From Escherichia coli (GTDB taxonomy: Bacteria > Pseudomonadota > Gammaproteobacteria > Enterobacterales > Enterobacteriaceae), in the NCBI RefSeq assembly GCF_003018115.1, contig NZ_CP027457.1: 64,000 nt of DNA; one strand, given 5' to 3'. Numbering within the stretch: position 1 is the first letter of the stretch; every line of letters begins with the position of its first letter. Position numbers: made by a program. Positions 24,001 to 27,000 of this stretch are shown here, piece after piece.

Positions 24001-27000
24001 CGTCAGGCACTGGAACTGATCGCTGATGCAGAGTCGGCCAGAAAAAAGTAGCCCGCCCGGAAATTCGCTTTCTGATGCGACTTGCGCTCCGTCTGGGGCG
24101 CACCTTATCTGAACTGCGGCACAGCCTGAGTGCGAGCGAGGCGATGATGTGGATGGAGTTCGACAGGATATCCCCGCTGGGTGATGAGCGCGGGGATATC
24201 CGTAATGCACAGATCGTGAAAGCGGTTTTCGGGGCACAGGGTATGAATGTTGCACTGAAGGACGCCATGCTCTGCTGGGGCGAGGATGAGGATAAGCCGG
24301 AGGTGGATCCGTTTGCGGCGCTGGAAGACGCGCTGAGCTTTGCAGCACAGTCATGAATGATGAGAACCGCTGAGGCGGTTTTTTTACGCCCGGAGAAAGG
24401 TGAATGGCGACGTTACGTGAACTGATTATCAAAATTTCGGCAAATTCACAGTCATTCCAGTCGGAGATCCAGCGGGCGTCCCGTATGGGCAGTGAATATT
24501 ACCGTACCCTGCAGAATGGCGGACGTCAGGCTGCTGCGGCAGCCAGGGAGCAGCGCCGGGCTCTGGCTGAGCTGAACAGCCAGTTGACGGAAATCCGCGT
24601 TTCGGCTGTCGGAATGACCGGTGCGTTTGCCGGTGCCTTTGCCACCGGACACCTGATTTCGCTGGCGGATGAATGGAGCTCCGTGAATGCCCGTCTGAAA
24701 CAGGCGTCGCAGTCATCGGATGAATTTGCGTCATCACAGAAAGTGCTGATGGACATCAGCCAGCGGACAGGCACCGCATTTTCGGATAATGCGGCCCTGT
24801 TTGCCCGTTCGGCTGCCTCGATGCGTGAATATGGTTACAGTGCTGATGATGTGCTGAAGGTGACGGAGGCCATTTCGACAGGGCTGAAAATTTCCGGTGC
24901 CAGTGCGGCAGAGGCGGGTTCGGTGATCACCCAGTTCAGCCAGGCGCTGGCACAGGGGGGGTTGCGCGGCGAGGAATTTAATTCGGTCAATGAAAGTGGG
25001 GACCGGATCATTCGCGCACTGGCTGCAGGCATGGGCGTGGCCCGTAAGGATCTGAAGGCGATGGCGGACGATGGTCAACTGACGGCGGATAAAGTCGTTC
25101 CCGCGTTAATCAGCCAGCTGGGGATATTGCGTGATGAATATGCAGCCATGCCGGAAACGGTTTCCGGTAGTATCACGAAGGTGGAAAACGCCTTTATGGC
25201 CTGGGTGGGCGGCGCGAATGAGGCCAGCGGAGCGACGAAAACGCTCTCCGGCGCGCTGAACGGTGTGGCCGGAAATATTGATACCGTGGCAACAGCTGCG
25301 GGTGTGCTGGTTGCTGTCGGGGTGGCCCGGTACTTTGGTAATCTGGCTTCCGGAGCGATGTCTGCCACGGCAGGACTTGTGACCGCTGCACGTAATGAAG
25401 TGGCACTGGCTGAGGCCCAGTTAAGGGGAACGCAGATTGCCACTGCGCGGGCAAGGGCAGCCGTGTACCGGGCTCAGCAGGCTGTGGCGGCAGCCCGCGG
25501 GACTGAGATGCAGATTGCCGCAGAGGCCCGTCTGGCGGTCACACAGGAACGCCTGAACAGAAATATTGCTGCCAGAACCGCCGCCCAGAATGCGCTGAAC
25601 AGTACAACGGCGGTGGGCTCACGTCTGATGAGCGGTGCGCTGGGACTGATTGGAGGCGTACCCGGACTGGTGATGCTGGGAGCTGCCGCATGGTACACGC
25701 TGTACCAGAATCAGGAACAGGCCAGGGAGTCTGCGCACCAGTATGCACTGACGATTGATGAAATCGCGCATAAAACGCCATCAATGTCTCTGCCTGAAGC
25801 CTCAGATAATGAAGGGCGAACACGGGAGGCGCTGACAGAGCAGAACCGGCTGATTGATGAGCAGGCCAGCCGGGTGAAATCCCTGCAGGAAAAAATCGCC
25901 GGGTATCAGTATGTGCTGGCTAATCCGGGCTGGACGACCGGTAACGGCTTCATGATAAACCATCTGACATCGGTGAAAACTGTAACGGAAGAGCTTGCTC
26001 AGGCAACAGAGCAGTTTGCTGTTGAGCAGTCCCGTCTGGCACAGATGCAGGAAAAAGCGCAGTCCATTCAGGATGTGCTTGCCGGACTGGAAGAGCGCCG
26101 TGTTGTGTTAATTCGTCAGCAGGCAGCAGAGCAGAATAAAGCGTATCAGTCACTGCTGGTCATGAACGGTCAGCATACGGAATTCAACCGCCTGCTGGGG
26201 CTGGGTAATGAACTGCTGCAACAGCGTCAGGGACTGGCGAGTGTACCGCTGCGACTGCCACAGGGCACTCTGGATGATAAACAGCAGAGCGCCCTGAATA
26301 ACACAGAGCGTCAACTTGCCCTGTCCCGGCTGAAAGGGGAAGAAAAAGAGCGTGCCCGGCTGGGGTATGCGGCGGATGACCTTGGTCTGGTGGGGGATAC
26401 GTATCAGGAGGCGAGGCAGCGTTACATCCGTAATTCGATGGAAGCCTGGCGCAATAATGAGGCGAATAAACCCAAATCCCGGGCCGGAAAATCAGGGGCG
26501 GAAAAAGCGGAAGACAGTTTTTCCCGTCTGCTGAAGCAGCAGAAGGAACAACTGGCACTGGCCGGGAAGAATACAGAACTGGCAAAACTGAAATACCAGA
26601 CCTCGCAGGGCGAGCTGAAAACCCTGACGGAGATACAGAAGCAGGAGCTGCTGCGCAATGCTGCCCTGATTGACCAGAAGAAAATCCGGGAGCAGTTACG
26701 GGCCCGGGAGGAGGCCCTGAAAAATGATAATGCAGACGAAAGGGCATCAAATGACGCTGAGCTGCTGGGGTACGGGCAGGGTGAGCGGGTCCGTGAACGG
26801 ATGCGGGAGCTGCAGCAGATTCGTGACGGCTACCGCCAGAAGGATGCGGACCTGCAGTCTCAGTATCAGACAGGGGATATCAGTGAGGATTTTTACAGAC
26901 AGGCGCTGGCGCAGAATGCGCAGTATCTGAGTGAACGCCTTAAAGACCAGGAGGCTTTTTATGCCGAATCGGATGCGCAGCGTGCTGACTGGCAGAAAGG

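Follow-up and report, generated by a model that had tools for sequence, protein, structure and literature searches.

A programmed -1 ribosomal frameshift very likely joins the two tail-assembly chaperone genes, G and T, of a prophage in the window, the term used here for the whole 64,000-nucleotide stretch of Escherichia coli DNA that was analysed. The element that carries the site is an HK97-like lambdoid E. coli prophage. The anatomy of the site, its family membership and its conservation were established in the present analysis, and frameshifting on an identical sequence comes from the literature; the G-T frameshift at this locus is therefore already known, in that such shifting is usual in long-tailed phages, the HK97 homologue is annotated accordingly and the same sequence has been assayed. 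The genes, all on the plus strand, follow the order tail tube, G, T and tape measure. The major tail (tube) subunit gene, which encodes a C-terminal Ig-like domain, occupies 22946..23662, with Pfam matches to Ig_3, I-set, Phage_TTP_11 and Phage_tail_2; RefSeq places a 'major tail subunit' at identical coordinates. Gene G, the tail assembly chaperone, follows at 23677..24051 (RefSeq CDS WP_000710934.1), T runs to 24356, and the tape measure protein gene lies at 24404..27646 (PF06120 Phage_HK97_TLTM, E=4.8e-88, plus TMP_3 and Tape_meas_lam_C), so that the small G/T pair sits between the major tail and tape measure genes, as is characteristic of the class. Separate folding placed a hairpin and then a U-run between T and the tape measure gene, and a consensus terminator scan did not report this hairpin after T.

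The G frame starts at ATG 23677 in RefSeq, where the anti-SD pairing is -8.4 kcal/mol, and stops at 24049-24051, giving a product of 124 amino acids. This product matches PF06222 Phage_TAC_1 over positions 1-124 of 124 (E=1.6e-61; 206.1 bits against a cut-off of 25), a family that HK97 gp13 also matches, and it matches PDB entry 2OB9, 'Tail assembly chaperone' (E=1.1e-45), the structure of the gp13 family. PF06222 is the only Pfam match: no match was found to the lambda G family, PF06894 Phage_TAC_2, and BLASTP of the window G against lambda G gave E=3.3, indicating no pairwise similarity. Judged by sequence, the G domain is of the HK97 type (gp13 family) and not of the lambda type.

In the -1 frame, a TGA at 24024-24026 is followed by an open stretch that begins at 24027 and runs up to the TGA at 24354-24356, and the G frame ends with TAG at 24049-24051. 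The 25 nt at 24027..24051 (plus strand) are consequently the sole stretch open in both frames, and a productive shift must occur there; T overlaps the 3' end of G in the -1 frame by these 25 nt. Within the overlap, at 24042..24048 on the plus strand, lies the slippery heptamer A_AAA_AAG, whose X_XXY_YYZ register is that of gene G; the TAG stop of G (24049..24051, plus strand) abuts it directly on the 3' side. The initial annotation had described the end of G as AGA AAA AAG TAG, with a slippery heptamer in it and a downstream ORF in the -1 frame to 24356, and this reading is exact throughout: the four codons lie at 24040-24051 in the G frame, the heptamer is in register with 24042 as its first base, and the T stop codon ends at 24356. 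The adjoining TAG provides a possible 'shifty stop' context, and the same three bases are also imposed by Val-Ala coding in the -1 frame (GTA GCC). The bare string AAAAAAG is common in the window: the two strands together have 38 copies, where shuffles lead one to expect 12.2. When the plus-strand stretches that run for 150 codons or more without a stop were taken as background (12,798 in-register codon positions), X_XXY_YYZ heptamers of all kinds together numbered only 40 and A_AAA_AAG did not occur; the chance of a heptamer in the 8-codon overlap is therefore P ~0.025 for any kind and < ~1e-3 for A_AAA_AAG.

The T segment, taken in the -1 frame at 24048..24356 (plus strand; 102 codons and a stop), matches PF06223 Phage_tail_T with E=2.6e-19 and 69.9 bits (cut-off 25.9), a score that may be set beside the 54.1 bits of lambda T itself, and it also matches the PHROG family phrog_337. 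The predicted fusion, join(23677..24048,24048..24356), has 226 amino acids and the junction ...ESARKK-VARPEIRFLM.... When searched as one protein it matches phrog_14766 in a single stretch, residues 2-225 on profile positions 2-224 of 224, with 288.6 bits; from its length and description we take this family to be one built of G-T fusion proteins. A search of NCBIfam with the fusion gave no match. The G-T fusion proposed by the initial annotation is thus supported by gene order, by the PF06222 and PF06223 assignments, by the end-to-end phrog_14766 match and, as set out below, by the annotation of HK97 gp14, by conservation and by a published frameshift value of 7% on an identical 75 nt.

Naturally fused ORFs were considered as 'Rosetta stone' proteins for the pair and were set aside. 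P0101, which has 33% identity and both Pfam domains, has a middle part that is Arg-rich and out of frame, which suggests an assembly artefact. P0002 is in the wrong frame for about 25 residues, as would fit indel errors near the A run. Of the other two, P0004 is truncated and P0001 is a singleton with an 11-nt deletion.

The measurement is that of Antonov et al. 2013, who list frameshift ID 15618692 of the Phage_TAC cluster in Table S2 with 7% ± 0.79 -1 frameshifting in E. coli (PMC3711429). The 75-nt insert of this construct is identical to window positions 24022-24096. The figure comes from a GST-MBP reporter and not from the prophage, and ribosomal and transcriptional slippage are not separated by that assay. 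No downstream RNA stimulator was supported by the fold of 24049-24140 (92 nt; z=-0.55), and no SD-like stimulator was found upstream of the heptamer, where the best anti-SD pairing is -3.0 kcal/mol. The site accordingly falls outside the dnaX-type stimulated class, in which an upstream SD-like element is combined with a stable downstream hairpin, and its efficiency would be due to the heptamer, perhaps with a contribution from the stop beside it.

A scan of IMG/VR with a single protein returned only relatives of at least 98% identity, and an alignment led by a Morganella homologue gave a diverse set. In all 80 of the 80 close IMG/VR relatives the heptamer is invariant while neighbouring positions vary. 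The G-T shift site is also conserved across genera: of 38 distinct homologous junctions, 37 have an A_AAG in register within the part open in both frames, and the complete A_AAA_AAG is found at 24. Other homologues have G_GGA_AAG, G_GAA_AAG or x_GCA_AAG, with only 3-4 A. Of the 24 distinct junctions with A_AAA_AAG, 14 have TAG next to the heptamer and the remainder have the stop 12-30 nt away, so that an adjacent TAG is not required across the chaperone family. The codon that precedes the Lys codons varies (AGA, AAA, GAA) and always ends in A, by which the heptamer is preserved. The -1-frame peptide that begins at the slipped Lys is conserved as K-V-x-x-P-x-x-x-F-x-M-x-LALR.G.T..EL, LALR follows that Lys at a constant distance in 23 of the 25 distinct peptides, and the V, P and F residues, which lie upstream of the annotated T start, are conserved as well. 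In Burkholderia phage KS9 the gene pair is annotated with a two-piece join. It is tentatively proposed, as a reading that is doubtful at present, that the conserved element of the HK97-type chaperone family is A_AAG, a single tRNA-Lys slip site at a distance of exactly nine codons from the F-L-M motif downstream, and that lineages may tune the G:G-T ratio through the P-site codon (AAA, GGA, GAA or GCA) and through the gain or loss of a stop directly after the site; the A_AAA_AAG_TAG of the window would then be a high-efficiency 'shifty stop' variant and the G_GAA_AAG of HK97 a low-efficiency one.

If G and T were two independent genes, in line with the RefSeq annotation, T would be a protein of 93 amino acids started at ATG 24075, perhaps by termination-reinitiation, and the heptamer would be no more than the codons of a conserved Lys-Lys C-terminus. 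This ATG (24075..24077, plus strand) is the RefSeq and GenBank start of 'tail assembly protein T'; it lies 24 nt past the G stop, it was used by both PGAP and the GenBank annotators, and it encodes the Met of the conserved F-L-M motif, which is retained in most homologues. The C-terminus of G is, moreover, Lys-rich across the family. However, two independent genes are improbable for several reasons: first, the anti-SD pairing of ATG 24075 is the weakest of the 10 starts compared, at -3.5 kcal/mol against -5.8 to -12.8 kcal/mol for the others. Second, the stretch that separates the heptamer from the ATG encodes, in the -1 frame, conserved V, P and F residues whose spacing is fixed, and phage KS9 has Leu in place of Met at the ATG position. 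Third, the codon before the Lys codons varies and yet keeps its final A, and hence the heptamer. Finally, the identical sequence yielded a measured frameshift product, and its cluster is absent from those listed as showing internal initiation (PMC3711429). ATG 24075 is thus probably internal to the reading frame of the fusion, and some free T may be made by re-initiation there.

A different origin for the same fusion is transcriptional slippage, in which RNA polymerase, by leaving out one A or inserting two extra within the A6 run at 24042-24047, would produce a subpopulation of mRNA with G and T in frame. A homopolymeric A run is indeed present, programmed transcriptional realignment is known to occur at poly-A runs (PMC3711429), and the GST-MBP reporter is blind to whether its product has a ribosomal or a transcriptional origin. 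Nevertheless, this scenario is very unlikely, since the run has only 6 A, short of the n>7 of the cited cases, among which dnaX of T. thermophilus has A9 (PMC3711429). Furthermore, homologues with the same arrangement have 3-4 A, the near-universal feature being the tRNA-Lys slip site A_AAG, and an LMessi-like G_GGA_AAG cassette of the same Phage_TAC cluster gave a similar value of 6% (PMC3711429). Least credible of all is a chance or decayed arrangement, with a defective prophage, a useless heptamer and an unexpressed T: the element is a prophage, and the near-identical copy in strain RM7190 has a portal gene flagged as frameshifted, but the structural module in the window is complete and intact, an in-register heptamer would arise in the 8-codon overlap with a probability of ~0.025 or less, the site is invariant in 80 relatives and conserved across genera, and frameshifting was measured on the identical sequence (PMC3711429).

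Under programmed ribosomal frameshifting, standard decoding would take most ribosomes to the TAG, yielding the 124-amino-acid chaperone G. A minority, ~7% in the reporter, would slip back one base on A_AAA_AAG; at the level of the tRNA, the single tRNA-Lys of E. coli would re-pair from AAG to AAA in the A site, and the P-site tRNA-Lys from AAA to AAA. The slipped ribosomes would then read GTA GCC and onwards in the -1 frame to 24356, yielding the 226-amino-acid G-T fusion, and free T protein would be expected to be absent. By homology with lambda, the G part of the prophage proteins may bind the tape-measure protein and the T part may recruit the tail-tube protein, and by the same analogy tail assembly would need a fixed low ratio of G-T to G, with neither protein staying in the virion.

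The 851-nt locus is present at an identity of at least 90% in 1,245 of 5,426 complete E. coli genomes. Among the matches listed, G and T are named as separate genes in all 15 E. coli records and all 25 phage records; closer inspection of phage 2851 and of two RM7190 stretches showed, in all three records, separate CDS features and no join, with the T part shortened to the internal ATG start. The correct product for annotation is join(23677..24048,24048..24356), and the databases keep G and T apart; the practical value of the present result is therefore one of annotation and does not lie in new biology. A link between the modification state of tRNA-Lys and host control of lambda infection is reported (PMC3296357). 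The site described here depends on tRNA-Lys modification, and the same dependence is expected for these Stx-phage-like prophages.

The closest known system is gp13/gp14 of HK97 (GenBank AF069529), which has ~60% amino-acid identity to the window proteins over both parts. The two share PF06222 and PF06223, the same place between the major tail gene and a PF06120-type tape measure, and the same fused motif, K-V-x-x-P-x-x-x-F-L-M-x-LALR; HK97 likewise encodes T in the -1 frame, and its gp14 carries the annotation 'translated due to a -1 frameshift'. They differ in the site itself, given that HK97 lacks a canonical in-register X_XXY_YYZ and has G_GAA_AAG 15 nt before the stop, whereas in the window A_AAA_AAG abuts TAG. 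The region from gene 14 to the tape measure gene contains, in HK97, a moron gene (15) as well as a terminator, and in the window only the hairpin and U-run.

In lambda (Levin, Hendrix and Casjens 1993; Xu, Hendrix and Duda 2004, 2013, 2014), as reviewed in PMC5009743, G and T lie between V and H with T in the -1 frame, and a low-level shift gives a fixed gpG:gpGT ratio of 30:1; the binding partner of G is the tape measure, and that of T is the tail tube protein. Frameshifting between G and T is a conserved trait of long-tailed phages (PMC5009743). The initial annotation had predicted the window fusion 'as in lambda', and this holds for the mechanism and the T domain: the T family PF06223 is common to both, and in both the shift is made by tRNA-Lys at A_AAG. 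It does not hold for the G domain, which in the window belongs to the HK97 gp13 family and in lambda to PF06894, with no detectable pairwise similarity, nor for the shift site, since the lambda heptamer is G_GGA_AAG, 15 nt before the stop in a 64-nt overlap. BLASTP of the window T against lambda T likewise detected no similarity, and the two are linked through the Pfam T profile only; lambda T has 144 amino acids against 102 in the window.

The heptamer itself is identical to that of E. coli dnaX gamma/tau, where A_AAA_AAG is read by the single tRNA-Lys (PMC5009743, PMC3711429), and no heptamer in E. coli shifts more readily, owing to that single tRNA-Lys (PMC5009743). At dnaX the shift is raised to ~50% by an SD-like stimulator upstream of the site and a hairpin downstream of it (PMC3711429), whereas the window has neither in detectable form, which fits the ~7% measured; furthermore, the shifted product is the shorter one in dnaX and the longer one in the window. 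For E. coli, A_AAG has been described as the minimal Z_ZZN site (PMC5009743), and it is the element common to nearly all junctions of the chaperone family and to the tetranucleotide -1 sites of IS1222 (G_CGA_AAG) and Bacillus cdd (A_CGA_AAG). The tetranucleotide-only form occurs in HK97-type and Klebsiella-type relatives and not in the window, which holds the full heptamer, so that both the P-site and the A-site tRNAs can re-pair.

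The 3' end of gene G, read from the sequence with both frames translated, is GCC AGA AAA AAG TAG, and the heptamer A_AAA_AAG at 24042-24048 (+ strand) is in register (X_XXY_YYZ) with the G frame, exactly where the initial annotation had placed it, with a -1 open frame ending at 24356. G runs on the + strand from ATG 23677 to the stop at 24049-24051 (RefSeq; 124 aa); a mechanical ORF list starts it earlier, at 23629. In the -1 frame, the TGA at 24024-24026 is followed by no further stop until the TGA at 24354-24356, so the two frames are open together for just 25 nt, and the heptamer falls within this stretch. 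A -1 slip would give join(23677..24048,24048..24356), a predicted protein of 226 aa whose junction reads ...AESARKK-VARPEIRFLMRLALRLGRTL.... In every inspected record of this sequence G and T are two separate CDS, T being a free-standing 93-aa 'tail assembly protein T' called from ATG 24075 (24075-24356) and carrying no ribosomal-slippage join (RefSeq/GenBank; also NZ_CP015244.1 and NC_049943.1). The predicted anti-Shine-Dalgarno pairing of this ATG is the weakest of ten module starts (-3.5 vs -5.8 to -12.8 kcal/mol).

Decisive for frameshifting is a published reporter result on identical sequence. Among the predictions of Antonov et al. 2013 (Nucleic Acids Res 41:6514, PMC3711429) is a 'phage tail assembly chaperone' cluster, comprising 41 frameshifted genes that resemble an HK97 protein, and two members assayed by GST-MBP reporter in E. 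coli gave 6% and 7% frameshifting; the cluster is absent from the authors' list for internal initiation or translational coupling. The 75-mer insert that gave 7% ± 0.79 matches the window at a single place, 24022-24096, with zero mismatches; the feature is already known and its exact sequence already assayed. The second insert (6% ± 0.61) is of the G_GGA_AAG type, as in phage LMessi. Together with this assay, the HK97 annotation, the conservation of the junction and a match to phrog_14766 support the predicted G-T fusion. Against that 224-position 'tail protein' family the fusion aligns as one stretch, residues 2-225 to positions 2-224 (288.6 bits), G alone covering 2-122 and T alone 125-224.

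Conservation was followed across 38 distinct homologous junctions, some taken from phage records and others from IMG/VR contigs; the hosts that the phage records name (E. coli, Klebsiella, Proteus and Burkholderia) and the organisms of the protein matches (Morganella among them) cover several genera. T is in the -1 frame at 38/38, and an in-register A_AAG occurs where both frames are open at 37, the types being A_AAA_AAG (24), G_GAA_AAG of HK97 type (8), G_GGA_AAG (3) and x_GCA_AAG then TAA (2); the Burkholderia phage KS9 has A_AAA_AAA. The codon 5' of the lysine codons varies by lineage (AGA, AAA, GAA), its last base being A every time. Translation of the -1 frame, beginning at the slipped Lys, gives K-V-x-x-P-x-x-x-F-x-M-x-L-A-L-R-x-G-x-T-x-x-E-L, with constant spacing in 23/25 distinct peptides, and given this fixed spacing V, P and F are conserved 5' of the annotators' start Met; KS9 has Leu at the position of that Met. 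One singleton relative, the 222-aa JGI metagenome protein P0001, carries G and T in one frame (...ARKKEIRFLM...), a join that fits an 11-nt deletion taking out TAG and the next codons; this arrangement would give fusion only and no free G, and may reflect either a genuine mutant or a fault in assembly.

The bare string AAAAAAG is frequent in the window, with 38 copies on both strands vs 12.2 ± 3.4 expected from dinucleotide-preserving shuffles. In register, heptamers are rare: in + strand stretches of 150 or more codons without a stop, outside which G itself falls, the 12,798 codon positions include only 40 X_XXY_YYZ heptamers of whatever type, and A_AAA_AAG is absent. The chance of any in-register heptamer in the 8-codon overlap is thus about 0.025, and of A_AAA_AAG below about 1e-3. 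A_AAA_AAG is unchanged in 80 close IMG/VR relatives, the flanking bases being variable.

The modified U34 of the single E. coli tRNA-Lys pairs better with AAA than it does with AAG. In E. coli this makes A_AAG, and above all A_AAA_AAG, the -1 sites most prone to shifting, and G_GGA_AAG is likewise highly prone (Atkins et al. 2016, PMC5009743). An anti-Shine-Dalgarno pairing scan found no upstream stimulator 5' of the heptamer, and no downstream RNA stimulator was found, the 92 nt 3' of the site folding no better than shuffles (z=-0.55); single-digit efficiency fits, given that no stimulator was found. The TAG directly 3' of the heptamer might contribute as a 'shifty stop'. However, this stop is treated as optional, given that the conserved -1-frame Val-Ala codons (GTA GCC) also dictate it and that the stop lies 12-30 nt from the site in 10/24 distinct A_AAA_AAG junctions. 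Transcriptional slippage at the A run is an unlikely source of the fusion: the run has only six A, realignment is cited for n>7 (PMC3711429), and relatives with just three or four A retain the same G/T arrangement.

G matches Pfam PF06222 Phage_TAC_1 over its full length (E=1.6e-61) and the solved 'Tail assembly chaperone' structure 2OB9 (E=1.1e-45), and the -1-frame segment matches PF06223 Phage_tail_T (E=2.6e-19). By Pfam, the 5' neighbour of G is a tail tube protein with an Ig domain and the 3' neighbour of T an HK97-type tape measure protein (PF06120, 1,080 aa). The gap from the T stop to the tape-measure start contains a 9-bp hairpin, GAGAACCGC/GCGGUUUUU (24362-24385; dG -10.8 kcal/mol, z -1.8), which is followed by a short U-run and looks like an intrinsic terminator within the late operon, although a scan for consensus terminators did not pick it up. 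At the equivalent position HK97 has moron gene 15 and a putative terminator.

The lambdoid prophage in the window is one of Shiga-toxigenic-type E. coli. The 851-nt stretch surrounding the site has 100% identity to several genomes of O91 and O104:H21 strains and 99.3% identity to phage 2851 and Stx-converting phages related to it, with a copy (at least 90% identity) in 1,245/5,426 complete E. coli genomes; phage records named PPompW also match the G-T region. The useful outcome is an annotation correction for a prophage module that is very common in E. coli.

Elsewhere in the element, one 645-aa ORF (16679-18616), upstream of the 861-aa portal ORF (18828-21413), joins a prohead protease (Peptidase_S78) to an HK97-type capsid domain. 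No Pfam family exceeds its own threshold past residue 382 of the portal ORF, leaving ~480 C-terminal residues unmatched; in E. coli RM7190 (NZ_CP015244.1), which has a near-identical locus, the portal gene is 1 nt shorter and flagged a 'frameshifted' pseudogene. Genes for tRNA-Met (CAT) and tRNA-Arg (TCG) at 3942-4103 precede a TolA-C-terminal-like ORF at 4382-4810, and no Stx-sized ORF pair precedes the esterase-sized ORF 8096-10060; RM7190 calls the tRNAs Ile and Arg and the esterase-sized equivalent a SASA family carbohydrate esterase. The element appears to be a lambdoid prophage, Stx-phage-like but lacking stx. Given that the near-identical RM7190 prophage ends (6853-6978 onward of L172, the NZ_CP015244.1 stretch) next to a truncated ompW, 3' of which lie yciE/F/G, the trp operon and leader, topA, cysB and acnA, the window spans a prophage-chromosome junction, at ~38,850 onward if colinear.

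The locus belongs to the HK97 gp13/gp14 family: HK97 genes 13 and 14 have about 60% identity to G and T here, GenBank AF069529 gives gp14 as a CDS in two pieces, 'translated due to a -1 frameshift', and among homologs inspected only HK97 and the likewise annotated KS9 carry the join. The HK97 junction has no canonical X_XXY_YYZ heptamer, G_GAA_AAG alone being present; junctions of this type place it 15-24 nt 5' of the stop, and Klebsiella-type junctions have x_GCA_AAG, TAA at once and an overlap of only 10 nt. Relatives lacking a canonical heptamer include the HK97 record L083 (936-987) and the relatives L117-L125, L085 and L128, and the sole element common to the chaperone family is the tetranucleotide A_AAG, a family-level view of shift-site variants being a further outcome. 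At dnaX frameshifting is roughly 50% (PMC3711429), as against single-digit efficiency here. The mechanism works like lambda G/G-T, where the shift site is G_GGA_AAG, 15 nt 5' of its stop. In lambda, both G and the G moiety of G-T form a coat on the tape measure, the tail tube subunit is recruited by the T part, the G to G-T ratio is critical and the virion contains neither protein (PMC5009743); by analogy, we infer that G and G-T would play these roles in this prophage. The initial likening to lambda holds for the mechanism and for the Pfam profile of T, the sole feature common to the two T sequences, but not for the G family, since lambda G is PF06894, G here is PF06222, and BLASTP between them (E=3.3) puts the locus outside the lambda G family.
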